A stretch of DNA of 64,000 bases. Origin: Candidatus Omnitrophota bacterium. Lineage in GTDB: Bacteria > Omnitrophota > Gorgyraeia > Zapsychrales > Fredricksoniimonadaceae. Below are positions 9,972 to 25,943 of this stretch, in pieces. Where the stretch lies: NCBI GenBank assembly GCA_903944345.1, contig CAJARJ010000009.1:65875-129874 (forward strand), in the 5' to 3' direction. Under the pieces are notes generated by a model. It had not been told where the DNA came from. It worked only from the letters and a program-made list of their open reading frames with translations, and made no database searches. Made by a program: the position numbers and the translations under genes. Positions within the stretch are counted from its first letter, which is position 1; each line of letters starts with the position of its first letter.

Positions 9972-10113
9972 AGAAACTGTCCTTTCTTCTGCAAACGTAA
10001 TCATTATGGAATAAAGGCGCATCCTTAAGGTATGCGCCTTTATTCCATAAACTACTTACTGCAATGGCTGGTCAACCCCGGATTCAACAGGCCGGCCTAG
10101 CAGCCTAAAACTA

Positions 10114-10899
10114 TTACTTGCCTGGAACAGAATCCGCAATGGTCATATTATTAATCACGCTCTTCACGCCATTGACATCTGCCACCAACTTGCCGACCAA
10201 AACCTTTTCGGCATCGTTCTTGGCAACCCCGCTAACAGTTACAATACCATCGACAACGGCCACCTTGGTATTCACAGCACTGGTCGAATGATGCGACAAG
10301 AGTGCCACCTTAACCTGGGCGACAATAGACGCATCATCAATCTTTTCACCCAACGTCTGCCCGCTGCTCGCCGGAATATTAGCCAAAGTCATCTCATTCT
10401 TGACATTCTTGACACCGCTTACATCTTTGGCATATTCTCCGGCCAAATCCTTCTGGGCCTGCGATGCAGCTTCACCTTTAAGTGTCACTACCCCGTCTTT
10501 AACCTCAACCAGCGTCTTGAAAGCATTGACGTTGGGATGGAACAAAAGAGTAGTTTTAACTTTCATACCGATCCAGCCATCCGAATTCTCGGCAGGACTG
10601 TCCCCTTTAAGAACCAGCTGATTATCCACGCTCTTGACACCCGGCAAATTTGCCACCGTTTCCTGTGCTAACGATTTGTGAGACTCTTGTGTAACGCTAC
10701 CAGTCAAAGTAACCACCCCGTCTCTGGACCGAGTAACAACCGAATCATCCTTAAGATATGTTCTATAAACATACGACTCCTGAGCCGTTGACTCAATCCG
10801 GCTGTCCGTCTCAGAAGCGAAAGCACCAAATACAAACGAGCCACTGCACAACACAACAGCCGCGATTGCTGTAAACGACTTCGAATAATTAGTTTTCAT
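10114..10899 (-). CDS. BON-domain periplasmic protein (OsmY-like, 3-4 BON repeats)
   Basis: Repeated VVTL.G.V......LA...V.N.PGVKSV.N.L blocks. I trimmed the start to ATG at 10899, which has a GGAAGG Shine-Dalgarno and a signal peptide. Confidence 0.7.
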   Translation of the reverse strand: MKTNYSKSFTAIAAVVLCSGSFVFGAFASETDSRIESTAQESYVYRTYLKDDSVVTRSRDGVVTLTGSVTQESHKSLAQETVANLPGVKSVDNQLVLKGDSPAENSDGWIGMKVKTTLLFHPNVNAFKTLVEVKDGVVTLKGEAASQAQKDLAGEYAKDVSGVKNVKNEMTLANIPASSGQTLGEKIDDASIVAQVKVALLSHHSTSAVNTKVAVVDGIVTVSGVAKNDAEKVLVGKLVADVNGVKSVINNMTIADSVPGK

Positions 10900-11144
10900 A
10901 AAACACCTTCCGTTAATTAAGTTTTGTGCCTTTAACAATATGCACATATCTCGATGCTTCCTTATAGTAAAACACCGACCATAGAAATCACTCCAACTCC
11001 TTTCCAATGCCAAGGTTGGCGCCCTTAGACATTGCGCGCATTATTCCTTTATTTCCTTATAGAATGATTCTAGTTGTCTATAAAAAGAAAACAATTGAAC
11101 CGGGGTATAACAGGCCTTGTGACCCGTCTTGAATGGGGGAAATA

Positions 11145-12125
11145 TCACGCCTCTATCAACTCAACAAGCCTGGGATAAATCACTGCGATTCTTTGGTAGG
11201 GCTGCTCGGGGTCAATCAAATCATGCAAAACACCTAAACTTCTATCGAATTCAAAACGCGTAATTCTTACACCGTTATGTTTCTTCCAGTTATCAATCAC
11301 CTTTGCAAAAATCCTGTCATTCACCGATTCATCTAGCGCATTGGCAACTACAAGAATGTCCTGCGTTTTGGGTGCCAGTCTGCTGGCATCTTTAATCACG
11401 AACCAGCCCAAAAGCATGATTTGAGCCAACCCTCTGGTTGAAAAACGATAGTACGCAGAAGTCGGCCCCAAAAGCTCCTTCTTTTTCTCATTACTCCACC
11501 ACAAGAACATATCAGGCAGGATCAGCAAGAAATTGATAGCCAGCTTCAAGCAACTGACGGGCAGCATCTTCCATCCCCAAAACGGCGATATTATAACCGC
11601 TTTATCGACATCACCCCTGTTCTGCGCAATCCAACAGGCCATGTTTGCCCCCATAGACAAACCGGCGACAATAACATGCCGGCCCAGTCCCCGGGCAATA
11701 TCCACAGATTCATCTGATAATTCGATCAATTCCGACACTGTCAGTCTGGAGTAATCTTCAGTCATTCGATCCTTGAGGCCATGATGTGGTACCCGGGGAA
11801 TCAAAACATTATAACCCTTATTGTAAAAGATCTCCCCCAGGGCCCTAAATTGTCGCGGGCTGTTTGTCCCTCCATGAAAAAAGACAATAACGCGCCCGAC
11901 CCGCTTGCCGTGAGTCAGAAAGACAAGATGTCCATCCGAAGAAACCTCATCCCCGTCGACATTGCGTAAATCATCAATACGCCTTACGCTTTCCTGATAA
12001 CTTCTCGATGGCACAGTTCCTGAAACGGGAGAATCTACCCGTAACAGTTTTGAGAATAAAGTCCTGAATTCATTAAATATTGACATCACGGCTTTCAGAA
12101 TGTTTCCTTGAATCTGTTGAGACAT
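11145..12125 (-). CDS. Alpha/beta-hydrolase (esterase/lipase-like)
   Basis: FFHGG oxyanion motif and GLSMG nucleophile elbow. Confidence 0.65.
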   Translation of the reverse strand: MSQQIQGNILKAVMSIFNEFRTLFSKLLRVDSPVSGTVPSRSYQESVRRIDDLRNVDGDEVSSDGHLVFLTHGKRVGRVIVFFHGGTNSPRQFRALGEIFYNKGYNVLIPRVPHHGLKDRMTEDYSRLTVSELIELSDESVDIARGLGRHVIVAGLSMGANMACWIAQNRGDVDKAVIISPFWGWKMLPVSCLKLAINFLLILPDMFLWWSNEKKKELLGPTSAYYRFSTRGLAQIMLLGWFVIKDASRLAPKTQDILVVANALDESVNDRIFAKVIDNWKKHNGVRITRFEFDRSLGVLHDLIDPEQPYQRIAVIYPRLVELIEA

Positions 12126-14173
12126 ATTCTCATAAACTGATCCGGAAAAACGTCAAACATCTTTTCGGCATGACCACCATTTGCCATAACCTTCAGAGCC
12201 TTGGGGTGCCGTGCTTTATCGAACAACAGCCGAGTATAACTCAACTTAACAAGCGAATCTTTGCCCCCATGCAGAAACAACACTGGCGTGGGCGCGATTT
12301 TGTCAACGACATCACCCGGGGGAAGCTTTTGCAAAGCCGGACTGCCCGGGCTGACCGCCTCCTCATCTTTGCCAATCTCTAAATTATGCTTGAGATCTTC
12401 CTCCATATCTTTCTTCCAATAATTATAATTAATACTTCCCAGATCGGACGGAGAGCTGACAGCTATAACACTGTCAATATTCTGATGAAAACTTGCTTCA
12501 ATCAAAGTTACGGCCGCGCCCAGTGAAAAGCCGATCACTCCAATTTTTTTATACTTATTCTCTCGGGCGTAAGCAGTAATAGCTCGCAAATCCTTATGCT
12601 CTTGTGCTGTCCATGTAAACACATCACCAATCTTGCCATGTTCACGAAAATCAAAAACAATCACATCGTACTCCCGGCTGAATGCCTCAGCCATCGCTTT
12701 CAACAGGGGCGTGTCCTTGTTTGTGTAAAAGCCGTGCGCAATGACAATGACCCTGGAAAACCCTTTATTAACATGATCAAAGGCAATGCGTTTCCCGTCA
12801 TCGGTCATCACATAACGATTGGCACCTCGCTCCTGTGCAGAAAAGGGCTCCGGCTGAACACTCCCTGAGGCTGTATTGACAATCTTCTCAGGTTCGGTGT
12901 TCCTGAAGTTTCCTTCAAAAATTGAAGTGAATACAGACCGGATATAATTTCTATAAATATCCCACTCGACTTTTATCCTCCAGAAATATAGATACTGTGA
13001 GCTGTTTCTTTTGCCCACAGCGACAGATTTTCGTGATCTGGCCTCCTCATACACAGCCAGCATGCGCTGGGCTGAAAGCTCAATCGTGTATTTCTGTGCG
13101 GTAGCTCTTGCGGAGTGCTTCATTGCCTGCAATTCTTCAGGAGCACAACGTAGTACCGATAACAATGCGTTAACAAAGCTATGCTGATCCATTTCAGCAA
13201 GCAAGCGTCCGTTAAAATGATCTTTAACAACATCCCTGGCTCCCGGAGCATCCAGTGCGACCACCGGCACTCCGGCTGCCATGGCCTCAACAAGAACAAT
13301 CCCTTGTGTTTCGCTCAAGGAGGCAAACGCAAAGACATCCATGGCAGAATATCCATCCACTAGATGCTCGTAATGCAAAACTCCGACCAAATGCAATCTA
13401 CTCTCAAGACCAGCATTCCTGAAGACATCCCTGATCATTGCCTCTGAGGAGCCTTTACCCACAATCAAAGCATGTGCGTTTGGTTCGATTTCCAATAATT
13501 CGACTATAGACGCTACCAGAAAATCCAGATTCTTCTCTGACGCCAGTCTGCCAACATGCCCAATCACAAAAGCAGCACTGGGAATCTGATTTTCTTTACG
13601 AAATCTTTTGCCATCGCCGTTTGAAAAACGCTTCAAATCTACCCCGGTTGGAACGACCTCCATAGGAGTCTTGACCCCCCGTCTAAGCAAGATTTCCTGT
13701 ATGCTTTCACTGGGAACAATCAGGCGATCGACACAATTGGCATAACCAGCCGCAAGCTTGACAATAAATCTTTTTACTCCTTCATTTTGTATCGGCCAAT
13801 CCTGCACGTACTCCTCAAACATTGTGTGATAGGTAAATACCAGCGGAATAGCGTGCTGCCGACTTAAACGTAACGCAAAATCTCCCATAAAAAACGGACA
13901 ATGGCTATGAACAATGTCCGGACTAAATTCTTTCATTAATCGAGTGAGAAGCCGGGAAACCGGAAAATTGACAGAAAAGATGGTCCAGCTGAATTTCTGG
14001 AAGGCGGGCAGACGAATTACCCCTGACTCCTCAACCGGAGCTCCCTGGAAAGTCGGAGTCACTATCAATACTTCATGCCCCAGGGCTTTAAATTCTTCGC
14101 TGAAAGAATGCACCGATTGCTCCAACCCCCCGACAATCGGAAAGTATGTATTGGTCATCATAAGAATTCTCAT
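12095..14173 (-). CDS. Fusion protein: GT4 glycosyltransferase (N) + alpha/beta-hydrolase (C)
   Basis: The N-terminal part is GT4-like (MRILMMTNTYFPIVGGLEQ...EAMAAGVPVVA). The C-terminal part has a GFSLGAA nucleophile elbow and LFLHGGKD. I trimmed the start to ATG at 14173, which has a strong GGAAGGAG Shine-Dalgarno. Confidence 0.65.
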   Translation of the reverse strand: MRILMMTNTYFPIVGGLEQSVHSFSEEFKALGHEVLIVTPTFQGAPVEESGVIRLPAFQKFSWTIFSVNFPVSRLLTRLMKEFSPDIVHSHCPFFMGDFALRLSRQHAIPLVFTYHTMFEEYVQDWPIQNEGVKRFIVKLAAGYANCVDRLIVPSESIQEILLRRGVKTPMEVVPTGVDLKRFSNGDGKRFRKENQIPSAAFVIGHVGRLASEKNLDFLVASIVELLEIEPNAHALIVGKGSSEAMIRDVFRNAGLESRLHLVGVLHYEHLVDGYSAMDVFAFASLSETQGIVLVEAMAAGVPVVALDAPGARDVVKDHFNGRLLAEMDQHSFVNALLSVLRCAPEELQAMKHSARATAQKYTIELSAQRMLAVYEEARSRKSVAVGKRNSSQYLYFWRIKVEWDIYRNYIRSVFTSIFEGNFRNTEPEKIVNTASGSVQPEPFSAQERGANRYVMTDDGKRIAFDHVNKGFSRVIVIAHGFYTNKDTPLLKAMAEAFSREYDVIVFDFREHGKIGDVFTWTAQEHKDLRAITAYARENKYKKIGVIGFSLGAAVTLIEASFHQNIDSVIAVSSPSDLGSINYNYWKKDMEEDLKHNLEIGKDEEAVSPGSPALQKLPPGDVVDKIAPTPVLFLHGGKDSLVKLSYTRLLFDKARHPKALKVMANGGHAEKMFDVFPDQFMRICLNRFKETF

Positions 14174-14208
14174 TGCCTCTCCTTCCGACAAAGACCAATC
14201 ACGCCCGG

Positions 14209-15666
14209 CTACAACCGGTTCTTTAATTCCAGAAGTTCTTTTCTTGCGGCCATACATATCGCACTATAGGAATCCTGCGCCCCCATCAATCGTCCATCCT
14301 TTTCCATATCCCCTGGGAGAAGCGGTTTCCCGAATCTCACCCTGATAGGGTGACGTTTGGGATACTTTACCGAACTGGCCCACGCTTCATGAGCCCCTTC
14401 AATAGCGACAGGTACAAGTTGAGCACCGCTTTCAAGAGCCAAAACCCCAAAACCTTTCTTGAAGCGGCCGATTTTCCCGGTCGTGCTGCGCAACCCTTCC
14501 GGGAAATAACACAAACCTTTCCCTCGTTTTAAAACCAGAAAGCAGCTGCGCAAGGCCTCGAGAAAATGGGTGGAGAAATCAAACGGAATAAATCGTCCCA
14601 TTTTTACTAAATTTCTTAAGACTCGGGACTTCACAAACGGCCTGAAGAAATAGGGCCCGAAAACAAAATAGAAAATCTGAAAGACCGGCCTGCGCGGCAA
14701 ACACGCGGCAATCGCCGGGCCATCAAGAAAGCTCGAATGATTGGCATAAAGAATATAAGCCCCTTCTTTGGGCACATTATCCGCCCCCTCACTTTTGATA
14801 CTAAAAAACAGTCTAAAAAGCAGACAATCAACAGCCGTTAAAGTAAATCGGAACAGCCAGGCGAAATAACCCGTACCCAGTTCGATCATTTCCCATGTTT
14901 CCTGATTTGGCGGCACACTTAAATTATTATTCCAGTAACCGGACCCAGAAGATATCCGCTGTCTCTTTGAAGCGATTATTTCAGGCGACTTAAGCGCGGA
15001 CTCCAGCTCCCGCAGCAGCTCTCTTACACTGAAGGATCTCGACACCGCCTCATCTTTTATGTCCGAACCAAACGCCAACTCGAGGCGTGATACAAGCTCT
15101 ATTCTGCCCAGAGAATCTATACCCAGATCAAGCTCCAGCGAATCCTCAAGCATGATCGGCCTGATAATCCCGCACTGCTCTTTCAGGCATTCCAGAACTT
15201 TTATCCCTTCCTCTGACCGCAAAAGCCCGGAATCACTGGCTAAGGCTTCTCCTGAGCCCGGAAGGGCCCCCTCGATTCCCGCGATGACTCTGGGCTCATA
15301 AATTTCCCTGACAGCATATCTTTCCAGCTTGCCAAAGAAATTGTGCGGCAAATCCTCGAGCGTAATGGTAAAGCCTTTGAGTCTTTTATAGACAGGCAAA
15401 GAAAGCGAGACATTGTCGAATCTCTCCTTAAGGACAGAACGCAAATTGACCTCGCCAAATTCCCTGAAACTATCCAGATCCGGCTGTATGACTGCCCAAA
15501 GCACCCTGGATTTCCTAACCCCATCCATTCCCGGGACTCCGAAAACACACATCTCTTTAACCGGAGCCATTTGGGTATAGACCGCCTCGATCTCCTCCGG
15601 ATAAATTTTCTCCCCCGGGTTCAACCTGAATGCTTCAATATATTTGCCCACAGGTCTCTCTGTCAT
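14209..15666 (-). CDS. Fusion protein: AMP-binding C-terminal subdomain + acyl carrier (PP-binding) domain + PlsC/LPLAT acyltransferase
   Basis: The N-terminal ~120 aa resemble only the C-subdomain of adenylate-forming enzymes (GEKIYPEEIEAV...GKLERY). An LGIDSL phosphopantetheine site follows. The NHSSFLD (HX4D) acyltransferase motif is present. The gene overlaps the upstream gene by 1 nt (TAATG). Confidence 0.6.
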   Translation of the reverse strand: MTERPVGKYIEAFRLNPGEKIYPEEIEAVYTQMAPVKEMCVFGVPGMDGVRKSRVLWAVIQPDLDSFREFGEVNLRSVLKERFDNVSLSLPVYKRLKGFTITLEDLPHNFFGKLERYAVREIYEPRVIAGIEGALPGSGEALASDSGLLRSEEGIKVLECLKEQCGIIRPIMLEDSLELDLGIDSLGRIELVSRLELAFGSDIKDEAVSRSFSVRELLRELESALKSPEIIASKRQRISSGSGYWNNNLSVPPNQETWEMIELGTGYFAWLFRFTLTAVDCLLFRLFFSIKSEGADNVPKEGAYILYANHSSFLDGPAIAACLPRRPVFQIFYFVFGPYFFRPFVKSRVLRNLVKMGRFIPFDFSTHFLEALRSCFLVLKRGKGLCYFPEGLRSTTGKIGRFKKGFGVLALESGAQLVPVAIEGAHEAWASSVKYPKRHPIRVRFGKPLLPGDMEKDGRLMGAQDSYSAICMAARKELLELKNRL

Positions 15667-18347
15667 TAATCTGCCCCATATTTCAGTTCATATAAATTCG
15701 TTCCCGGAAGAATTCTTTCCTTTTTAGAACCGGGAAAATGAATGTCAATCGCTGGCTCTTTCCCTTGCAGCCATTGCCCTTTCCACTCAACAAGGCTATT
15801 TCGCTTGAGGGGGCTGATTGTGATGTGGATATCACCAAAACTTGTAGGGGCCGGACCAAACGCAAGCGTCTGATTTTTATCCAGCCATATTCGGGGAACT
15901 CCTGAACACAAAATAAGCCCGTTGCCTTCTTCCCTAACAAAACAGTTGCGAATCATCAGGACCCATTCTGCTGCAGCCCAGACGTGCTGTCCGTCTCCCA
16001 TGCATCCGCCACCCGTGCGAGGATGAATGGATTCGGGCCACTGCCCTGTTGGAGACGCAAATTTTGCTACCGCGGCCATTAATGCAAAATATTCAGGATT
16101 CCCGGAACGCAAAAGCACCTGAGCCAAATGCAGAGACAGATAAGGATTGATCCCTGAATGAGTCATGTCATGAAAGAAGGCGCCAGAAACCAAACAGTTC
16201 TTCATTAAATAATCCGCTGTATTCGACATCCTGGGATCATTCGACTCTACAATACGAAGAGGATAGCTGGCCGCCAATGAACCTATCGCCCCGGAATCCA
16301 TGCGCCGATAAGGAGACGCGGGGATTGCTGGGCGATTCAAACGTTTCGCCACACTTTCCAGGCTTCGATCAATACTCTGCATTAAGGCCCGCGATTCGAT
16401 CTCGAAATAAGAAGCCTGATTATTATCGTTATATTTAGCAGACAAAAAAGCCGCACTTCTTAACCCTGCGACACACCAGTAGTCATCCCAATAATAAAAA
16501 TCATTTGGCCCCAGATGCTCGGCGCTAAATCCCGATGGCAACAAACCAGAATGCGGCGATAACAAATTATCGGGTAAACGCTTCTGACATATCCAGCGAC
16601 CGGCTTTATTGATCGATTCTTTCCACTCTTCGGGTGGAGCATTGCCTGTCATTTCACAATACTGCTGCATAATCCACAAGGCTTCTCCGTTAGAGTCCCA
16701 CTCCCCTTCCTGCGAAAGAAAATATCCCTGTAACGTCTGTCGGTCGCGGAAACAATCCAGAGCCCGGCGCACACGATCTTTCAGTCCGGCACACAACAAG
16801 GCCTTTAGAATAAAAGCCGCATCACGAAACCAGAACCTCCGGTAAATATACGGCCCCGGATAAACTTCCCTGGGAGAATGCAAGATCATGGTGCGAATTG
16901 CGGCTTCGTAAAGAAACTGGAAATGCTCATCGGGAACCTTAAGCAAACACTCACCCTGAAGACTGGCGGCCCAGGCTGTCCGGGCCATCTGTGCATCTTC
17001 CACACAGGCATTATTCCTGGTCCCTTTATTCTCTACTAACGGCACCGTAAGCGCTATCTTCCGTGCCTGCCCCGCTTTCAATTGATATATTACCGCCGCA
17101 GAAGCCATGCCAACTCGACAGCAAACAGCGTTCCTCTCCTCCTGAAACGCCAAACGAGCATAAACATCACCATGTTCATAACATGAAAATGCCCATTGAT
17201 CCGGAATTATGTCCCAATAGAGAGAGCTGTTCTGATTGACCTGCCAACCTATCCGGCCTTTCAATATGGCAATATCGTAAACAAGGCTCAATCCTTCCGG
17301 ATTGTAGGGCCGTAAAGCAATCACAAGTTTAGCGTCCTCATCTGTCCGGCCTTCAACCAGGATATGACAAACAGGTGACTGCGTCCCGCCTAAAACCTGA
17401 ACTTGGGTTATAAGCACCAGGCTCTCAAATCTGGATTCCGTAACAACGCAAAGACCTTTGTCCATGATCAATTTTTGTGAACACCCTGACAACCGGGAAG
17501 GAATCAAGGGCTCCCCCTTCCCGGGAATGATCCAGAAGTCCAGTGACCAACTGTCAAAATAGGGCGTTACCAGTCCGCGTGGATCAACCAGTGGATATTC
17601 GGTGCTGTCAGGAATGCCCAGAGCCGTCCAATTGCGATGGGTAAGATTAATCTGCGTTAACGAAAAGGACCGAGGTATAAACGCTTCGTTGAGCGGGTCA
17701 TATTGACATTCCACCCAGTATGGCCAGACCCAATCCAGATTATGCTGAATGGCCAGACTGTTCATCAGTCCGCGCGCGTGCAGAACAACTCCGGAGCGCA
17801 CCAACTCCAGCGGAGCCGGAACCTCGGAAGGCTGCATAAAATTCTGCAACTGAAACAGTATCTTGAACGGATCAGGAAAGCCTTGTCGGCGTGCCGCGTC
17901 TCTTACAAAGAATTTCCAAGGTATCCATTTCCACCACGTAAAAGAAGTACTCTGACCTATCATCGGGAGAAAAACCCACCATTTATAACCAATATAAACA
18001 AACACTCCTGTTGCTACCGAGGCTGCGATCAAGGCCGGAAGAATCGCTTCGGGCCATACGGCAAGAATGCCGTGATTTGTCAGAAGATTAAGACCTAAAG
18101 CCAGAAAGTTAACAAATATATAACGGCCAGCTTCACCGGACGCTTTCGAGCAATGGCATTGAAATATCCAATGCTTGTTAAACAGATACGCAACAAGCCC
18201 TGCGCATATGAAAGAAATTCCTTTCGCCAGACTGAAAGGAAGGAATTGAAATAAAAGATAATAAAGGCCGGCGTCTGTGGCCCCTACAAAAAAACCGACA
18301 AGACCAAACCGGAATATTTCTGTATGCATATTCATAAAGTACCGCAA
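15666..18347 (-). CDS. GtrA-like membrane domain fused to a large six-hairpin glycosidase-like (GDE_C/GH63/GH15-like) domain
   Basis: The N-terminal ~130 aa are GtrA-family (FGLVGFFVGATDAGLYYLL, with four TM segments). The ~750-aa C-terminal domain has a block typical of (alpha/alpha)6 glycosidases (SPTGQWPESIHPRTGGGCMGDGQHVWAAAEW). Confidence 0.5.
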   Translation of the reverse strand: MRYFMNMHTEIFRFGLVGFFVGATDAGLYYLLFQFLPFSLAKGISFICAGLVAYLFNKHWIFQCHCSKASGEAGRYIFVNFLALGLNLLTNHGILAVWPEAILPALIAASVATGVFVYIGYKWWVFLPMIGQSTSFTWWKWIPWKFFVRDAARRQGFPDPFKILFQLQNFMQPSEVPAPLELVRSGVVLHARGLMNSLAIQHNLDWVWPYWVECQYDPLNEAFIPRSFSLTQINLTHRNWTALGIPDSTEYPLVDPRGLVTPYFDSWSLDFWIIPGKGEPLIPSRLSGCSQKLIMDKGLCVVTESRFESLVLITQVQVLGGTQSPVCHILVEGRTDEDAKLVIALRPYNPEGLSLVYDIAILKGRIGWQVNQNSSLYWDIIPDQWAFSCYEHGDVYARLAFQEERNAVCCRVGMASAAVIYQLKAGQARKIALTVPLVENKGTRNNACVEDAQMARTAWAASLQGECLLKVPDEHFQFLYEAAIRTMILHSPREVYPGPYIYRRFWFRDAAFILKALLCAGLKDRVRRALDCFRDRQTLQGYFLSQEGEWDSNGEALWIMQQYCEMTGNAPPEEWKESINKAGRWICQKRLPDNLLSPHSGLLPSGFSAEHLGPNDFYYWDDYWCVAGLRSAAFLSAKYNDNNQASYFEIESRALMQSIDRSLESVAKRLNRPAIPASPYRRMDSGAIGSLAASYPLRIVESNDPRMSNTADYLMKNCLVSGAFFHDMTHSGINPYLSLHLAQVLLRSGNPEYFALMAAVAKFASPTGQWPESIHPRTGGGCMGDGQHVWAAAEWVLMIRNCFVREEGNGLILCSGVPRIWLDKNQTLAFGPAPTSFGDIHITISPLKRNSLVEWKGQWLQGKEPAIDIHFPGSKKERILPGTNLYELKYGAD

Positions 18348-19256
18348 TCAATCCGCAACGCGTGACCCAGCCTGCGCCCCGCGCAATGTTCTATAATTCT
18401 TATCCCTGTACATCAACATATCTGCTCTTTTGAGCAACTCTTCTATTGTCTGGGGTTTCTGCGGATTGTAATAAAGGATCCCGAGGCTGAATGTCAGCTT
18501 GCGTGGCGAATTGGTGTTATATTTTGTCTTTTCAAGATTTTCTTTCAGTCGCTTGTGCAACGCATCCAGGCTCTCGGACTTTGCTTCCAAAGCAAGTATT
18601 GCGAACTCATCGCCTCCGACTCTGCCAATAACATCCGAACTGCGGAACGTCTTTTTGAGAACATCGCCTGCTGTCACCAGCGCCCGGTCTCCCTCCTCGT
18701 GTCCAAACTTGTCATTAATCTGTTTCATATTATCCAGGTCTGCATAAATTAGAATAAGCCCCCTGCCCGAACGGTTAGACAACTTCAAAAGCTGATTGGC
18801 ATAGATCAAAAACCCCCTGCGATTACTCACGCCTGTCAAAACATCCACAAGTGCAAGCTCCCGCATTGTCACTTCCGCTTTCTTTAACCTGTCAAACTGG
18901 CTGACCATCGGCTTATAAAATAAAATATACAGCGCGGGGGAAAGCAAGACGATAAGCATGACTGAAGCAACTATGGGCATATCCGTCGTATGCAGATCAG
19001 GAAGCAGCATAAACAAATACTTTGCCAATAATCCACATCCCAGTATGGAGAGCGTCAGGACAAAAAGCAGCCTTCGGGGAGTGTACATTCTTTCAAAACT
19101 GTCCGGCCTGCATTTTCTATCGGAGGCACCAGCCGGGTTTAAAGTGGGATGATAACCCTCTTTCTTTGCCATATTAACAGTCTTTTCCTCAACAGCCCGA
19201 CGATAAAGTGTCGGGCTGATCTTGTCCTGAAGGAACCTCAAAACATCAATTCGCAT
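18348..19256 (-). CDS. Membrane-anchored GGDEF diguanylate cyclase
   Basis: An N-terminal TM region is followed by the RVGGDEFAIL active-site motif. Confidence 0.8.
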   Translation of the reverse strand: MRIDVLRFLQDKISPTLYRRAVEEKTVNMAKKEGYHPTLNPAGASDRKCRPDSFERMYTPRRLLFVLTLSILGCGLLAKYLFMLLPDLHTTDMPIVASVMLIVLLSPALYILFYKPMVSQFDRLKKAEVTMRELALVDVLTGVSNRRGFLIYANQLLKLSNRSGRGLILIYADLDNMKQINDKFGHEEGDRALVTAGDVLKKTFRSSDVIGRVGGDEFAILALEAKSESLDALHKRLKENLEKTKYNTNSPRKLTFSLGILYYNPQKPQTIEELLKRADMLMYRDKNYRTLRGAQAGSRVAD

Positions 19257-19307
19257 GAAACAAATCCCGTTATTCCGGATTTATCTTCAAAAAACGATAA
19301 CCCGGAT

Positions 19308-21221
19308 TTATTTATCATCCTTAACAACAAAATCCGCATCAATGACACCTTCATGCCTGCTGGCAGCCGCACTCGCAGAGCTATCCTTATAATTATTTTG
19401 CGTCTTAGCATCCGAATCCATCTTCATTGCGTCTTCTTCAACTGGATCCTTCTGAGACCTGGTGGATTTATACATCCCTTCGGCTAACGAGTGAGTTAAT
19501 TTGCTCAGAGACTCCATACAGGACTTGATGCGGTCAGACGCCTTATCTTTCACTGCCTGTTTGAGTGACTCCAACGCCTTGAATATGTTATCCCGATCAG
19601 ACGCCAAGACCTTCTCGCCATAATCCTTGAGCGCTTTTTCGGTTGAATACACCAGCGCATTGGCCTGATTAACAGCCTCTGCCTCCTCCTTGTGTTTCCG
19701 ATCCGCCTCAGCAAACTTCTCGGCCTCTTTTACCATCTTCTGAATTTCCTGCTCGGAAAGCTTTTTAGGAGATAAAATCCTGATTGACTGCTCCTTACCC
19801 GTGGCCTTGTCTTTGGCCCCCACATGTACGATCCCGTTAACATCGATATCAAAAATCACCTCAATTTGCGGAACTCCACGCGGCGCGGGCGGTATTCCTA
19901 CAAGATCAAACTTGCCCAATTCGGTGTTATCATTGGCCATCGGCCGTTCTCCCTGAAGAACGCGTATCGTTACCGCAGGCTGATTGTCATCAGCTGTCGA
20001 AAATATATTGGTCATTTTGGTGGGAATTGTCGTATTACGGTCAATCATTTTAGTCATGACCCCCCCCATCGTCTCAATGCCAAGGGTCAGTGGAGTTACG
20101 TCAAGAAGAAGAACATCCTTAACCTCTCCCTTGATAATTCCAGCCTGAACAGCCGCACCCAGAGCCACGCATTCCATCGGATCAATCCCGCGTTCAATCT
20201 TCTGCCCGGCTTCTGCCTCGACAAACGCCTGCACAATCGGCATTCTGGTCGGGCCGCCAACCATGATAATTTTGTCAATCTTGATTTGTCCCCCAACTTT
20301 GGCTGACGCATCCTTCAGCGCCTGGCGGATTGGATTCCGACATCTTTCGATAATCGGACCCAGAAGACTTTCCAGTTTTGCGCGATCCAGAGTCTGGATC
20401 ATATGTTTGGGCCCTGAAGCATCCGCCGTGATAAATGGCAAATTAATCTGGGTTTGAACAGTGGATGAAAGCTCTACCTTTGCTTTTTCCGCTGCTTCAC
20501 GCAAGCGCTGAAACGCCATTTTGTCCGCTGAAATATCGATACCTGTCTCATTCTTAAACTCACTGACAACATGTCCAATCAGAATATTGTCCATATCCGT
20601 GCCACCCAGCAAATTATCTCCGCTTGTGGCCAGAACCTCAAACGTTCCGCCTTCTCCCATATCAAGAACAGTCACATCCAGCGTGCCTCCACCAAGATCA
20701 AAAACCATGATCTTCTGTTCTTTACCCACACGGTCAATCCCGTAAGCCAGACAGGCAGCTGTTGGCTCGTTGATTATTCGTAACACTTTTAACCCGGCAA
20801 TCTCACCTGCGTCTTTGGTTGCCTGACGCTGGTTATCATTAAAATAGGCCGGAACCGTAATGACCACACTCTCGACAGTATCTCCAAGATATTTCTCAGC
20901 ATCCGCCTTGATCTTCTGCAAAAGGAAGGCCGAAATCTGCTGAGGCGTATATTCTTTACCAAAAATATTAAATTTGTGATCAGTTCCCATCTTGCGTTTG
21001 GCTGCGTAAACCGTGCCTTGCGGATTGATAGCTGCCTGCCGGTGCGCAGGTTCTCCTACCAACCGCTGGCCATCTTTGGTAAACGCAACAAAAGAAGGAA
21101 ACGCCTTGCCTGAGGCGACGCCTGCGCCTTCTGCAGACGGGATAATAACCGGCCGACCGCCTTCCATGACAGCCGCAGCTGAATTGGATGTACCCAAATC
21201 AATTCCTATAAATCGTGGCAT
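19308..21221 (-). CDS. dnaK: Hsp70-family chaperone (DnaK-like)
   Basis: [10 protein letters not shown] and [13 protein letters not shown] motifs; 637 aa. A short insertion lies near the N-terminus. No grpE or dnaJ is adjacent. Confidence 0.8.
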
Positions 21222-21302
21222 TAATAGCTCCTTTAAATTTTACTGGAAATAACCCAGATTTATTGCCTCGAATCAAAGCAAATGCAGCTGCACAACCTAC
21301 AG

Positions 21303-21974
21303 CTATTTTGTAGTGGTCACAGTTGTTGTGGTTGTCCTTGTTAGCCTTGGCGCGTACAGGGTTAACGCCTGAGCCAGCCGTTTCCCGTCTTTAACAACAT
21401 ATTCGACCCTCACCATATCGCCCGGCTTGATTCTTAACTGGACAGGCTCCAGCCCGGGACTCTGTCTGACCACAATCTTCCCCGGCTCAAAAACAAAAAA
21501 GGAGAAATTATCCCCTGCTTTTTCAAGGGCTGATGACCTGACAGCCAGAGTCAACGTTCCGGCGTCATTGATGTCCACAACTTCACCATAAGTATTCTGA
21601 TAGACCGACAAAGACTGGGGATCAACTGTAATCTTCTCTACAAACATCTCCTTGCGACCATTGATCATATCAATTGTGACATGTTGGCCAGGTTGTAAAT
21701 CCAGAACAGAGAGCAGTTTGTTGTCAGCAGGATCAGTGACCCGGGTTTCATGCTCGCTAACTCTGTACTCGGTTACTGCCCCTGTCCTTGGCGACGCATC
21801 GGCTTCAAGTTGCAGCTTGCCAGACCTGGTGTCCAGCCAAGTGATTTCACCCGATATGCGTTGCATCTCTTGCGCATTTGAAGCACGAGTAAAGATGCCA
21901 ACTAAAAGAACCGCAAACGTGAGCACAACAATCCTTCTGAAATATTTACAACTCATAATATGAATTCCTTTCAA
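21303..21974 (-). CDS. Secreted hypothetical protein
   Basis: Signal-peptide-like N-terminus (IVVLTFAVLLVGIFTRASNA). No recognisable motifs. Confidence 0.4.
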   Translation of the reverse strand: MKGIHIMSCKYFRRIVVLTFAVLLVGIFTRASNAQEMQRISGEITWLDTRSGKLQLEADASPRTGAVTEYRVSEHETRVTDPADNKLLSVLDLQPGQHVTIDMINGRKEMFVEKITVDPQSLSVYQNTYGEVVDINDAGTLTLAVRSSALEKAGDNFSFFVFEPGKIVVRQSPGLEPVQLRIKPGDMVRVEYVVKDGKRLAQALTLYAPRLTRTTTTTVTTTK

Positions 21975-21990
21975 ATTTTAGACATGTCTC

Positions 21991-22458
21991 TCAACGAATC
22001 AGCGACAAACGTCTGTTCTGGACTTCAGGTAGAACGCTTGCCAGCTGTGCCGGAATATCAGCGTTTAATTCTAATTTGACGACTCTCATGCGCGCCTGCC
22101 CCTGACTTATATCGTAGCCAGTCTGTTCCATGACTATTTTTTCGATATCTTCCAGGCTGGTATTTCCTGGATCAAATTTGACCTCCTGAATGTTCTTTAC
22201 ATCCAGCGAACTACTGGCTGTACCAGGCAAATAAATTGTACCGTTACTAAAATCAACAATATAGGCAATAACGCCAGGAATTATAAAGAACAAAAGCCCT
22301 ACTCCATCCAGAACTGCGACTCCGGCATCAATACGTCCGGATTTCTGTCCCCGGCGTTCAGGATATAGAAGAGTTCCGCACCCGGAAGATACAAAAATAA
22401 ACACCGAGCAAAACAATACATATAAAGTTTTGGTGGAAATCTGACTGATGCCTGTCAT
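21991..22458 (-). CDS. Hypothetical lipoprotein (YceK-like?)
   Basis: Lipobox SSGCGT after a signal peptide, and one predicted TM/amphipathic segment. Confidence 0.4.
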   Translation of the reverse strand: MTGISQISTKTLYVLFCSVFIFVSSGCGTLLYPERRGQKSGRIDAGVAVLDGVGLLFFIIPGVIAYIVDFSNGTIYLPGTASSSLDVKNIQEVKFDPGNTSLEDIEKIVMEQTGYDISQGQARMRVVKLELNADIPAQLASVLPEVQNRRLSLIR

Positions 22459-22693: not shown

Positions 22694-23320
22694 CTAGGGG
22701 TGATTCTCAAGCCTTGCCAGCGCTTCGGCAATTTCAAAGCTCAATAATGCAAAGGCTTTACTTAGGGCCTGAGTCAGACCCGGGTAATCATGCGGAATGA
22801 TCGGCTGCCTGAACTCCGAGCTTTTTATAAGAACAGTTTCTGAGCTTTGCACCTTGATGAGCTGCCACTGCACTACAAGGATCAGGTCTTTTTCCAGTTC
22901 GCTATCCAGTTGAACGATATTTAGCAGCACCTGGTATTTAACCGGCATCGACTGATTCCATGGATAGGCAGCTAATTCTGCCATAGGAAAGACAAGTGAA
23001 AGATTCTCCCTGATCAATCGCTCCAGACCACGATCAAGCGACTCTCCCCAGCGATCTAATTGGGAAAATTTAAGCATTCCATCCTGGTCTTGAGTTACGA
23101 TCTGAGGACGATCCTGATACTCCGGTATTTTTACCGGACCAATGCCGATCACTACGCTAACAGGCATATTTATTAACTTGCTGACTGAATCCCGGCTAGT
23201 GGCCTGTAGTTTATAAAAACGGGGTGTCGGACTGCTGGAAACAGATATGCACCCGCTAAGTAGCAAGGCCAAACATATCCCGTTTATAATCCTAAAGGGA
23301 TGTGTCCTGATCAGTCTCAT
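22694..23320 (-). CDS. PqiC/YmbA-like (DUF330) lipoprotein, ABC-transport auxiliary component
   Basis: Lipobox LLSGC. It lies immediately downstream of the MCE protein. Confidence 0.55.
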   Translation of the reverse strand: MRLIRTHPFRIINGICLALLLSGCISVSSSPTPRFYKLQATSRDSVSKLINMPVSVVIGIGPVKIPEYQDRPQIVTQDQDGMLKFSQLDRWGESLDRGLERLIRENLSLVFPMAELAAYPWNQSMPVKYQVLLNIVQLDSELEKDLILVVQWQLIKVQSSETVLIKSSEFRQPIIPHDYPGLTQALSKAFALLSFEIAEALARLENHP

Positions 23321-23321
23321 C

Positions 23322-24038
23322 TTATTCTCCTTTAGGCAACGCTTTGCCTTTCAAAATCGCTTCCGGATGCTGCTCAAGATATTCAGTCAGAAAACGTAAA
23401 GAACGCATGGACTGTTTTGTCTCCCTGATCATATCCCTGAGGTCATAGAGACTCCCGTGCAAATCACTCGAATTGACCAGTTTGTCCACTCCCCTGGTCG
23501 TTGCCTCGAGATTCTTTGCAATTTCCTTGATCGGTAATTCATTCATAAGATCAAAAATATCCAGAGGCGTAGGAAGCGTGGGCAACTCGGGGTACTCTTT
23601 GAGAATGCCTCGCAATTTTGCCGGCGTATCAGGATACAAATCAAATGAGATCAAAAGCTGTCCAGTCAGGAAACTCTGGACTTCAAGTTGTCCTCGCAGC
23701 CCCAGCGCAATCAGTTTTCTGTCTCCATCCTGTTCGCCGAAACCCGGAGTACCCTTTATACGGCCCTGTTCAATCTCCACAATGACCGGGAGCATCACAG
23801 TCCCGGCCTTCGAGTCATAAATAAGACTGATCTCTTTCACAACCCCAATGCTGACACCGCGAAACATGACCGGCGCTCCAATATCCAGACCTTTCACCGA
23901 ACCATCAAAATACAGGACAAATTTATTCGTACGCCTGAATATTTGCCCGGAACCAAAAGCCACAATAGCTATCAATAAGAACAGAATAGCCACAACCACA
24001 AACAGACCGATTAAGGTTTTATTCGCTGTTTTATTCAT
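23322..24038 (-). CDS. mlaD: MlaD-like MCE-domain protein
   Basis: An N-terminal TM segment followed by the MCE domain (FDGSVKGLDIGAPVMFRGVSIGVV). Confidence 0.75.
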   Translation of the reverse strand: MNKTANKTLIGLFVVVAILFLLIAIVAFGSGQIFRRTNKFVLYFDGSVKGLDIGAPVMFRGVSIGVVKEISLIYDSKAGTVMLPVIVEIEQGRIKGTPGFGEQDGDRKLIALGLRGQLEVQSFLTGQLLISFDLYPDTPAKLRGILKEYPELPTLPTPLDIFDLMNELPIKEIAKNLEATTRGVDKLVNSSDLHGSLYDLRDMIRETKQSMRSLRFLTEYLEQHPEAILKGKALPKGE

Positions 24039-24811
24039 GGTTCTGACTCCTTTGATTCCACCCCTCTTGTCAGAAAACGAACAACCCTGGAATCCGTACT
24101 ATTAGCCAATAAAAACCTCGGATCTCCGGTCGCGATAATTGTTTTACTCTCCGCATCCAGAAATGCGCCATTATTTCCGATTGCAAAAATACTGGCAAGT
24201 TCGTGCGTGATCACAACCACAGTAGCTCCCAAACCGTCTCTCAACTCAAGAATAAGATCATCAAACTTTCGGGCATTGACAGGATCCAGTCCGGCTGACG
24301 GCTCATCAAGAAAAATAATCTGCGGATCAAGCGCTATGGCTCGCGCCAGACTGGCTCTTTTGCGCATCCCTCCGCTTATTCCTGAAGGAAACAAGTCTTC
24401 CTGTCCACTCAAGCCTACCAGCGCCAGCTTAAAGGCAACAAGCTCACGAATCTGGGAAAAGGACAAGCTTGTAAACAATTGCAACGGCAAGGCAACATTC
24501 TCGCCGATCGTCATGGAACTCCACAAGGCTCCGCTTTGATAAAGAATCCCGAAACGGCACAGAATATTCTGCCGACCGCTTTCATCTTCATCCCAGAAAC
24601 TCCTGGCGTAGTACAGGACTTTACCCTTTATCGGAGATTTAAGGCCAATCAAGCTCTTGAGCAAAGTGCTTTTACCGCAACCGCTGACTCCCATAACGAT
24701 AAATATATCGCCTTTATTGACAGTAAAATTTACAGCCCGCAGCACAATATGCTCGTCGTACCCCAAATCAACATCCATAACTTGTATAACGGGCTGTTTT
24801 GCTGGTTCCAT
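24035..24811 (-). CDS. mlaF: MlaF-like ABC transporter ATPase
   Basis: Walker A GVSGCGKST, ABC signature LSGGMRKR and Walker B FLDEP. I trimmed the start to MEPAKQ. Confidence 0.8.
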   Translation of the reverse strand: MEPAKQPVIQVMDVDLGYDEHIVLRAVNFTVNKGDIFIVMGVSGCGKSTLLKSLIGLKSPIKGKVLYYARSFWDEDESGRQNILCRFGILYQSGALWSSMTIGENVALPLQLFTSLSFSQIRELVAFKLALVGLSGQEDLFPSGISGGMRKRASLARAIALDPQIIFLDEPSAGLDPVNARKFDDLILELRDGLGATVVVITHELASIFAIGNNGAFLDAESKTIIATGDPRFLLANSTDSRVVRFLTRGVESKESEP

Positions 24812-24815
24812 AAGC

Positions 24816-25943
24816 TTATATCCCCAGTGTCTGGCAGATAAACGTGATGACCGCTGTCGCAATGACAATGCCGGTTATCCCGGTAACGACTGCCGACATT
24901 GTTGCACTTGCAACGCCAACCGAGCTTCTTTCACATTTCATCCCGTGCCAGCATCCCGAGACAGCGATGATAACGGCAAACGCCAGAGAATGCACAAGTC
25001 CGATCCATATATAGCTGACCTTGACCGCCTGTTGGGTATGATTCAGATATTCCGCAAAATTAAGATGCAACATTCCGATACTGATAACCAAACCTCCCAG
25101 CACTCCCGAAATATCTGCGTATATGGTCAAAATCGGCATCATCAAAAATAATGCCAGAACCCGCGGAATGACCAGAAACTCGACCGGAGAAACACCCAAT
25201 GTTCTAAGCGCATCAATTTCTTCATTGGTTTGCATCATCCCCAGTTCAGCGGCAAATGATGCTCCAATACGGCCGGAAACAATTATTCCGGTCATCACAG
25301 CCGACAACACCCGTACCATGGCAATGCCCACGATATCGGAAATATAAATCTGCGCTCCGAACATCCTGAGCTGTATCGATGCTACAAAAGCGAGGATCAT
25401 GCCAACCAGAAAGCCTATTAAAGAAACAAGCAGAAAAGTGTCAATGCCACAGCGCCGGACCAAAAATATGAAGTCATCCCGACGAAAGTACAACTTTCCT
25501 ATCACAAGACGGCCAAAAGAAACAACAACATCTCCCAGAAATTCAAACCCGTTACGCACACTTTCATATTCCTGCAGCAACCCTACTCCCACCCGTTCAA
25601 GAAATGTCTCATGATTCTTCGCAGGCGCAATACCGCCTTTATGAGCCTTTGAGGCCAGCGCAAGCAGTCTCTGCGCAGTCTCTGGCAAGCCCGAGCGATC
25701 AACGGGAATATTCATGGATTCGCACTTACGAATCAGCTGATGTAAAAACGAGACGAGCCCGCTATCCCACTTCAAGTCCTGCGCAGCAGTAAGATTTATT
25801 TGCACAATATCAGGATGGCTGGCGAGGCAGGAGGTGACTGTATTTATTGAAAGAATGCCGGTCGCGATGCGCCAATCACCGCGCAACTTAACAAACAACT
25901 TGCCTGGATTTAAATAATCGAAAACAAGTTTCTCGGATATCAT
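24816..25943 (-). CDS. mlaE: MlaE-like permease with fused N-terminal STAS (MlaB-like) domain
   Basis: About 110 aa of STAS fold precede the MlaE permease core (several TM segments). Confidence 0.7.
   Translation of the reverse strand: MISEKLVFDYLNPGKLFVKLRGDWRIATGILSINTVTSCLASHPDIVQINLTAAQDLKWDSGLVSFLHQLIRKCESMNIPVDRSGLPETAQRLLALASKAHKGGIAPAKNHETFLERVGVGLLQEYESVRNGFEFLGDVVVSFGRLVIGKLYFRRDDFIFLVRRCGIDTFLLVSLIGFLVGMILAFVASIQLRMFGAQIYISDIVGIAMVRVLSAVMTGIIVSGRIGASFAAELGMMQTNEEIDALRTLGVSPVEFLVIPRVLALFLMMPILTIYADISGVLGGLVISIGMLHLNFAEYLNHTQQAVKVSYIWIGLVHSLAFAVIIAVSGCWHGMKCERSSVGVASATMSAVVTGITGIVIATAVITFICQTLGI

Follow-up and report, generated by a model that had tools for sequence, protein, structure and literature searches.

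The gene at positions 14209-15666 (minus strand) of a 64,000-nucleotide stretch of the Candidatus Omnitrophota bacterium contig CAJARJ010000009.1 (the whole stretch is hereafter the window) encodes a protein, here called T, in which the small C-terminal subdomain (A_sub) of an adenylate-forming (ANL) enzyme is followed by an acyl carrier protein (ACP) domain and a PlsC-type acyltransferase. An earlier sequence-only reading had described this arrangement and proposed that the protein either docks to a trans-acting adenylating enzyme or is a domain-loss derivative. The second proposal is now strongly supported. We found good evidence that T is a derived member of an Omnitrophota three-domain family (AMP-binding, ACP, PlsC) and that it exemplifies a conserved, apparently recurrent loss of the adenylation core with retention of the non-catalytic subdomain. 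Its parts are as follows, with amino acid (aa) numbers referring to T.

14209-15666, minus strand: T, 485 aa, A_sub, ACP and PlsC-type acyltransferase (ATG-to-stop open reading frame (ORF) with Pfam and NCBIfam domains)
15292-15666, minus strand: A_sub remnant, aa 1-125, motifs A8-A10 of an ANL enzyme (BLASTP, PDB profile, AlphaFold/Foldseek)
15259-15300, minus strand: linker motif YEPRVIAGxEGALP, aa 123-136, between A_sub and ACP (alignment conservation)
14992-15201, minus strand: acyl carrier domain, aa 156-225 (Pfam PP-binding, matches to solved ACPs, conservation of Ser185)
14800-14991, minus strand: variable linker, aa 226-262, then a hydrophobic segment, aa ~263-289, preceding the catalytic domain (conservation, hydropathy)
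14377-14799, minus strand: PlsC/lysophospholipid acyltransferase (LPLAT)-type domain, aa 290-430 (Pfam, PDB, NCBIfam)

By Pfam alone the assignment of the N-terminal part is marginal, AMP-binding_C matching aa 25-109 with E = 0.0038 and 18.5 bits, under its 24.5-bit cut-off. Other searches make the assignment secure. In BLASTP, aa 6-484 of T aligned colinearly with a 910-aa AMP-binding/AMP-binding_C/PP-binding/Acyltransferase protein encoded on a different Omnitrophota contig, over its residues 439-909 (37% identity, E = 7e-94), and this alignment opens at the TGRIKE (TGRxKE) hinge of the relative. Positions ~17-124 of T align with the extreme C-termini (last ~100 positions) of many NCBIfam acyl-CoA ligase models, and a PDB profile search matched aa 6-223 to the A_sub-carrier part of carboxylic acid reductase (5msc, E = 1.5e-8). 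The AlphaFold model of aa 1-231 has a predicted local distance difference test score (pLDDT) of 81.5; its best Foldseek matches are adenylation-peptidyl carrier protein (A-PCP) didomains (5msw, E = 9.7e-9), and the C-terminal domains of stand-alone ligases also match, at ~3 Å root-mean-square deviation across 110-125 residues. Aligned to full-length relatives, the start codon of T lies ~6 residues ahead of the A8 hinge, and Lys113 (codon 15328-15330) is the A10 lysine.

The two domains that follow are as the sequence-only reading had identified them. The carrier was recognized as PP-binding (PF00550, aa 156-219, E = 1.4e-7, over the curated cut-off); the PDB profile search also matched it to many solved ACPs, with a resemblance to housekeeping AcpP proteins, and aa 151-220 of the AlphaFold model have a pLDDT of 86-93. 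Ser185 in LGIDSL (codon 15112-15114) is the phosphopantetheine-attachment serine, and the domain is predicted to have the helical carrier fold with the serine of its D-S-L motif starting helix II. The acyltransferase was matched by PF01553 (aa 290-422, E = 4.9e-16, over the cut-off), while TIGR00530, the model that bears on transfer to lysophosphatidic acid in particular, scored 43.5 bits against a cut-off of 102.95. Its HX4D motif I is HSSFLD (aa 310-315, His310 and Asp315, 14722-14739), and motif III, FPEGxR, reads FPEGLRS from aa 388. The hydrophobic segment ahead of it (hydropathy peak near aa 279-281) probably corresponds to the membrane-associating helices typical of PlsC, with a presumed role at the membrane.

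The adenylation core is missing, as had been claimed. Pfam did not find PF00501 (the core, motifs A1-A7) in T, tblastn with a full-length relative as query did not find core sequence in any frame of the 64-kb window, and no AMP-binding domain was detected by Pfam in the window ORFs of at least 400 aa plus several smaller ones. T therefore lacks the N-terminal core of ANL enzymes and keeps the fold of the A8-A10 subdomain. The sequence-only reading had allowed for a frameshift concealing a full adenylation domain upstream. The ATG of T, however, shares one base with the TAA stop (TAATG) of an intact 893-aa ORF that belongs to the conserved GtrA family, the identical 485-aa protein (P0001) occurs on 8-9 independent contigs from different samples, and the same coreless form is carried by 55 GTDB species assemblies and by the annotated loci described below. 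The sole hint of an artefact is that the first ~15 residues of the window's T are atypical relative to the family consensus. We treated this as ordinary divergence: a compensated 5' frameshift was rejected since the other two frames, read by eye, stop within 15 codons and neither fits the consensus better. The probability that a frameshift, a mis-assembly or a mis-called start hides a core is negligible, and we regard this explanation as already refuted.

Relatives of T were searched among 1.84 billion cluster representatives. The truncated family forms a single 50%-identity cluster in this set and comprises at least 115 protein clusters of ~485 aa with 66-100% identity to T; every named one comes from Candidatus Omnitrophota. 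The other top relatives are mostly ~870-940 aa long and match T from residue ~430-445 onwards, the rest being fragments, mis-called starts and other truncations. A scan of GTDB species genomes gave 80 loci, which we annotated by tblastn. The core is absent from all loci with at least 62% identity to T, whereas 21 of the 22 loci at 42-57% identity have it directly upstream and in frame; the remaining one (L083) is cut at a contig edge. All 62 members of the truncated clade that were examined lack the core, and in a neighbour-joining tree of the shared region they form one clade. Its sister is a full-length protein (locus L062, 57% identity, core retained), and the pair is nested inside the full-length clade nearest T, designated F1; F2 denotes a second, more distant full-length paralogue (36-38% identity to T). 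Because the truncated proteins form one clade nested within full-length ones, a single loss of the core at the A8 hinge is indicated. The 55 assemblies with T and the 21 with F1 do not overlap. On this sequence evidence T looks like a descendant of F1 in one Omnitrophota sublineage, produced by a single deletion ending ~6 residues ahead of the A8 hinge.

Colinearity over A_sub, ACP and PlsC places T by descent in the Omnitrophota AMP-binding/ACP/PlsC family of F1 and F2, within which it is a derived truncated subfamily that lacks the three-domain architecture. The full-length F1 and F2 proteins are ~900 aa long and annotated as 'AMP-binding protein' or 'long-chain acyl-CoA synthetase' (for example L062:8744-11428 for F1 and L004:13928-16660 for F2). 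They share with T the A_sub-ACP-PlsC order and the carrier and acyltransferase motifs. T differs from them in several respects. Residues ~1-430 (motifs A1-A7) are missing, as are the hinge glycine and the A8 lysine; the PlsC domain contains an insertion of 5 residues, the linker motif is specific to the clade, and the operon is another one, with T placed between a GtrA-anchored protein and a GT4 glycosyltransferase. The linker motif, YEPRVIAGxEGALP, is near-invariant across the truncated clade and unconserved in full-length relatives, the sister protein at L062 having YGPKVTEERAGAAP instead; it may act as a novel surface for interaction, or as an A-PCP linker motif of the LPxP-like kind. The word 'orphan', used in the sequence-only reading, is apt for the polypeptide but not for the genomes, since full-length paralogues abound in the lineage, frequently on the contig that also carries T.

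Core loss apparently happened more than once. Four short relatives with ~30-33% identity to T (P0258, P0212, P0265 and P0231) come from other lineages, start at differing points within A_sub and lack the core. Two of them are genuine N-terminal truncations by context: P0258 (462 aa, L091:1085-2473) is preceded by two CBS-domain genes, and P0212 (469 aa) by divergently transcribed genes. Similar truncations thus seem, from the sequences, to have arisen in at least two unrelated lineages. The A10 lysine is lost in all four (replaced by Glu, Thr, Ala and Ala), and the carrier serine, HX4D and FPEG are kept. Since independent core losses each spare most of A_sub, the subdomain may be structurally tied to the carrier-acyltransferase unit.

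We compared conservation among the parts of T and found that the subdomain is retained but its catalytic residues are relaxed. Mean identity to the window's T across 115 truncated sequences is 0.84 for PlsC, the most conserved part, 0.68 for both ACP and A_sub, and 0.38 for the variable linker, the least conserved stretch; hence A_sub is not decaying freely. For column entropy we used T and F2 sets matched for divergence (mean pairwise identity 0.74 and 0.76). A_sub is relaxed in comparison with PlsC in T, with 0.90 against 0.46, whereas the two are about equally constrained in F2, with 0.61 and 0.58. The linkers of T are more variable than its A_sub (1.07-1.29), and the ACP has an entropy of 0.79 in T versus 0.83 in the full-length paralogues. 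Ser185, His310, Asp315 and Arg116 are each present in 115 of 115 T sequences, and FPEG is invariant in the family. Judged by these motifs, the carrier and the acyltransferase of T are likely functional.

The ANL residues behave otherwise. The hinge glycine, found in 85 of 89 full-length proteins, is replaced in the T clade by Ser, Ala, Thr, Pro, Asp or Glu, although the window's own T has Gly at the aligned position. The A8 lysine is present in 82 of 89 full-length proteins versus 7 of 115 T sequences, 66 of which have Glu (Glu19 in the window's T). The A10 lysine is kept in 88 of 89 full-length proteins versus 91 of 115 T sequences; it is replaced by Gln, Arg, Asn, Thr, Glu and others in the remaining 24 (21%), versus one full-length relative. 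As read from the alignment, the conserved ANL set of hinge GRxD/E, A8 lysine and A10 lysine is not maintained in T. In the review PMC11253843, stabilisation of the adenylation half-reaction is ascribed to the A10 lysine and that of the thiolation half-reaction to the A8 lysine. The lost constraint on both argues that A_sub of T no longer belongs to any adenylation or thiolation site, and it would rather be a retained scaffold than half of a split adenylation site.

T lies in a conserved gene cluster, whose other members in the window are listed here.

15666-18347, minus strand: GtrA-anchored protein, 893 aa, translationally coupled to T through TAATG (Pfam GtrA, AlphaFold/Foldseek)
12095-14257, minus strand: GT4 glycosyltransferase fused to an alpha/beta hydrolase, downstream of T (Pfam, NCBIfam)
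11145-12125, minus strand: second alpha/beta hydrolase, 326 aa, overlapping the end of the GT4-hydrolase gene (Pfam)

The order GtrA-anchored protein, T, GT4 is conserved across related loci. Wherever the upstream flank suffices, a GtrA-family match, mostly the full-length ~890-aa protein, lies directly upstream of T, to which it is translationally coupled; of the truncated loci that extend far enough, most have GT4 immediately after T, and the fusion to the hydrolase is found in only some. Homologues of the second hydrolase occur at L012, L013 and L020. Pfam recognized in the GtrA protein only its four-helix GtrA membrane domain, and the 764-aa remainder has neither a Pfam match at E <= 10 nor a PDB sequence match. 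In its AlphaFold model (pLDDT 68.8) an (alpha/alpha)6 barrel sits between two beta-sandwiches. Foldseek matched this model to GH94 cellobiose phosphorylase (1.4e-13), GH15 glucodextranase and glucoamylase, GH65 phosphorylases and the phosphorylase domain of cyclic glucan synthase. Thus the protein appears, from its modelled fold, to represent an undescribed family of membrane-anchored glycoside phosphorylases or hydrolases. It has more than 3000 homologues, and all named ones are Omnitrophota 'GtrA family protein'. The best curated match of GT4 is alpha-monoglucosyldiacylglycerol synthase (E = 2.6e-43, full length), with other lipid glycosyltransferases ranking high.

Every form of the family is accompanied by alpha/beta hydrolases: some F2 proteins (~1160 aa) carry one at the N-terminus, in other cases one adjoins F2, and at L062 one lies directly downstream of F1. 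Unusual fusions beside or inside the full-length paralogue (L004:16675-17070, running off the locus; P0321, P0332, P0339 and P0341) comprise a 640-aa PlsC-acyltransferase plus GH1 glycosidase protein that directly follows F2, and ~1160-aa proteins that combine alpha/beta hydrolase, AMP-binding domain, ACP and PlsC. On the 12.4-kb P0090 contig an alpha/beta hydrolase comes first, followed by F2 (916 aa) and a patatin-like phospholipase; the GtrA protein, T and the beginning of a further gene come after these, and the whole looks like a compact neighbourhood for lipid deacylation and re-acylation. The window also contains an Mla-type lipid-transport operon (MlaE, ABC ATPase, MlaD and an auxiliary protein; 22694-25943, minus strand). 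Mla-type genes lie within 10 kb in 9 of 68 loci, and such an operon is found near the cluster, in differing arrangements, at L001, L002, L003, L030, L041, L046, L052 and L080. Because a GtrA/GH-like protein, a lipid-type GT4, hydrolases, a patatin-like lipase and Mla genes make up the context of T, it probably belongs to membrane lipid or glycolipid metabolism. Judging from these neighbours, the operon probably makes or remodels an envelope or membrane glycolipid.

The explanation that we favour as a whole, and hold to be somewhat likelier right than wrong, combines a single ancient deletion of the core, loading of T's own ACP in trans, transfer by PlsC, a scaffolding A_sub and a glycolipid operon. 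An adenylation core of ~430 residues, ending at the A8 hinge, would have been deleted once from an enzyme with ANL, ACP and lysophospholipid-type acyltransferase domains, comparable to Aas in reverse domain order and with a built-in carrier. Ser185 would bear phosphopantetheine, and an acyl chain would be loaded onto this arm in trans, the likeliest donor being the adenylation domain of F2, with another acyl-ACP synthetase as a possible source. Next, the HX4D acyltransferase would transfer the chain from the ACP of T to an acceptor, a glycerolipid or glycolipid, on the cytoplasmic side of the membrane. A_sub would stand outside catalysis and persist as a folded structure that scaffolds or anchors the carrier domain. 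Intramolecular transfer from the protein's own ACP is plausible because Ser185, His310, Asp315 and FPEG are invariant in the 115 sequences. F2 lies within 10 kb of T at L004, L027, L042, L055 and L069 and on the P0090 contig; at L027 and L055 it directly follows the GT4-hydrolase gene. At least 19 more contigs appear to hold both F2 and the T/GtrA cluster, an indirect count from identical longest-contig sizes.

Several points weigh against this explanation. Neither the 64-kb window nor most loci with 10-kb flanks contain F2, gene absence in metagenome-assembled genomes being itself weak evidence, and F2 is as yet only a candidate for the loading enzyme. Alternatively, the PlsC domain might draw on soluble acyl-ACP or acyl-CoA. 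Lys113 remains Lys in the window's T and in 79% of the clade, and some residual role of A_sub is conceivable. The tree behind the single origin is a plain neighbour-joining tree without support values. The match of GT4 to the synthase model, at 149 bits, falls far under the 400-bit curated cut-off. Finally, whereas the sequences show the homology, the point of truncation, its single origin, the conserved carrier and acyltransferase motifs, the relaxed catalytic residues of A_sub and the operon, the trans-loading partner is inferred, and the acceptor lipid and the product purely so.

Our ranking of the ways in which the carrier could be charged puts trans-loading by F2 or another acyl-ACP synthetase at the top, then loading independent of a ligase, then a carrier that is a mere relic; a true split adenylation enzyme is unlikely. 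In the last case, A_sub of T would dock on a separate core or on the core of F2 and complete its site, the pair activating a fatty acid and loading the ACP of T. Such docking could explain why A_sub is under purifying selection (0.68 identity versus 0.38 in the variable linker), why Lys113 persists as widely as it does, and why F2 is often a close neighbour. However, we found no stand-alone core gene, whether in the window or across 68 loci with flanks of up to 10 kb, and in tblastn across 90 loci every core match sits in a full-length protein with its own A_sub. Across the clade the hinge glycine has given way to other residues, Glu mostly stands in place of the A8 lysine, and 21% of members have another residue for the A10 lysine. 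The four other short relatives, of which two are context-confirmed independent truncations, all lack the A10 lysine. We therefore consider the split enzyme very doubtful. Of the trans-acting enzyme proposed in the sequence-only reading, the weak form stands, in that some enzyme must charge the ACP in trans; the strong form, with A_sub completing a stand-alone core, is disfavoured by the missing core gene and the lost residues. A bolder version of trans-loading makes A_sub an obligatory adaptor through which F2 charges T, that is, a split two-protein Aas-like system with one activator serving two acyltransferases. We think this possible but rather unlikely. If it were true, the operon, through its membrane-anchored GH94/GH15/GH65-like enzyme and GT4, would produce a glycolipid that is acylated and particular to Omnitrophota, and the independent truncations that keep A_sub would mean that the carrier-acyltransferase pair needs A_sub to fold or function.

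Charging might also proceed without a ligase, the ACP being filled from the type II fatty-acid synthase or acyl-ACP pool, or by ATP-independent transacylation through the companion hydrolases. The alpha/beta hydrolases found beside every family form (in the GT4 fusion next to T, with F2, and with F1 in L062) fit this idea, as do the patatin-like lipase between F2 and the cluster on one contig, the lack of F2 within 10 kb of most T loci, and the likeness of the ACP to housekeeping AcpP proteins. The hydrolases could equally be lipases or editing thioesterases, however, and the literature searched gave no precedent for either route. Moreover, acyl transfer from an oxygen ester to a thioester is energetically unfavourable. 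We judge ligase-free charging improbable, and the joint reading of T as a self-contained transacylase in lipid remodelling, unconnected to F2, is improbable to the same degree. Finally, the carrier and A_sub could both be relics and T an ordinary PlsC-type acyltransferase using soluble acyl-ACP or acyl-CoA. The strong conservation of the PlsC domain and its match to Thermotoga maritima PlsC (E = 8.6e-17) would suit such an enzyme, and the NCBI name '1-acyl-sn-glycerol-3-phosphate acyltransferase' implies one. A relic carrier, in contrast, would hardly show such constancy of Ser185 and of LELDLGIDSLGR around it, which vary little or not at all across 115 sequences, nor an ACP as conserved as that of the full-length paralogues next to a relaxed linker, and the independently truncated lineages also retain the carrier serine. 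Hence we regard this as most improbable. Overall, loading in trans of an intact carrier, with A_sub as scaffold, remains the reading that we prefer.

Among known systems, E. coli Aas (2-acyl-glycerophosphoethanolamine acyltransferase/acyl-ACP synthetase) begins with the acyltransferase, continues with a complete synthetase and relies on a separate ACP. Aas-type acyl-ACP:phospholipid O-acyltransferases are the best curated matches of the T acyltransferase (PRK08043 and the larger PRK08633 and PRK06814, E = 3.7e-20 to 7e-15), at 54-71 bits against cut-offs of 886-1349, with the acyltransferase part alone matched. The T acyltransferase aligns to positions 8-146 of the 719-position PRK08043 (E. 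coli Aas), an N-terminal placement that bears out the reversed domain order noted in the sequence-only reading. In its logic T comes closest to the acyltransferase half of Aas, where acyl-ACP is the donor for lysolipid re-acylation, but its domains run in the other order, the ACP is part of the chain and a synthetase core is missing. T accordingly lacks the acyltransferase plus complete synthetase in one chain that characterise the Aas-type bifunctional enzyme. Carboxylic acid reductase (5msw, 5msc) and nonribosomal peptide synthetase A-PCP didomains have A_sub followed by a carrier in the same fold; in these enzymes, unlike T, the core is in the same chain and the acyl group goes to a reductase or condensation domain rather than to PlsC. 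T. maritima PlsC (5kym), a 1-acyl-sn-glycerol-3-phosphate acyltransferase, shares the HX4D and FPEGTR-type motifs but is a 247-aa single domain without carrier or A_sub.

An ether-lipid enzyme of the ElbD kind combines CoA ligase, ACP, reductase and AGPAT; we dropped this assignment since Pfam shows no reductase domain in T. FAAL-like domains fused to LPLATs have been described as 'unique domain organizations' of unknown function (PMC8460268). They follow the same general idea, an adenylating domain joined via a carrier to an LPLAT, but their adenylating domain is intact and no coreless form is described there. We found no description of the coreless form in the literature on such architectures, on Omnitrophota lipids or on natural splits between core and A_sub.

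Databases name T both 'long-chain acyl-CoA synthetase' and '1-acyl-sn-glycerol-3-phosphate acyltransferase'. The first name is wrong because T cannot adenylate, and the second ignores the conserved carrier. A clean cut at the hinge removed the core, apparently on more than one occasion, and A_sub outlasted the decay of its own catalytic residues. Such persistence suggests a structural role of A_sub for the attached carrier, which bears on the engineering of ANL-carrier fusions. T also marks a conserved operon specific to the uncultured phylum Omnitrophota, with a GtrA-anchored GH-like protein, a carrier-acyltransferase, a lipid-type GT4 and hydrolases.

Some minor observations concern the borders and surroundings of this operon. 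The stretch 14173-14257 (minus strand) concerns the start of GT4, whose ORF as listed overlaps the end of T by 49 nucleotides. Many GT4 homologues align only from residue ~25-29 (MRILMMTN), and the true start may be Met29, at about 14173, leaving a short intergenic gap. We considered the 49-nucleotide overlap as a trait shared with F1 of L062, but the downstream N-termini are unrelated and the likeness is a coincidence. A GGDEF diguanylate cyclase gene (18329-19256, minus strand) ends 0-18 nucleotides before the GtrA gene, depending on the start codon. It also lies upstream in 6 related loci and may be co-transcribed with the cluster. A scan of 10000-22000 for promoters and terminators gave counts no different from those in shuffled sequence. 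Further away, a 554-aa ORF without any Pfam match (52627-54291, minus strand) adjoins a homologue of STT3-like oligosaccharyltransferases (833 aa, 49882-52383, plus strand). A BON-domain gene (10114-11013) recurs in 12 loci.

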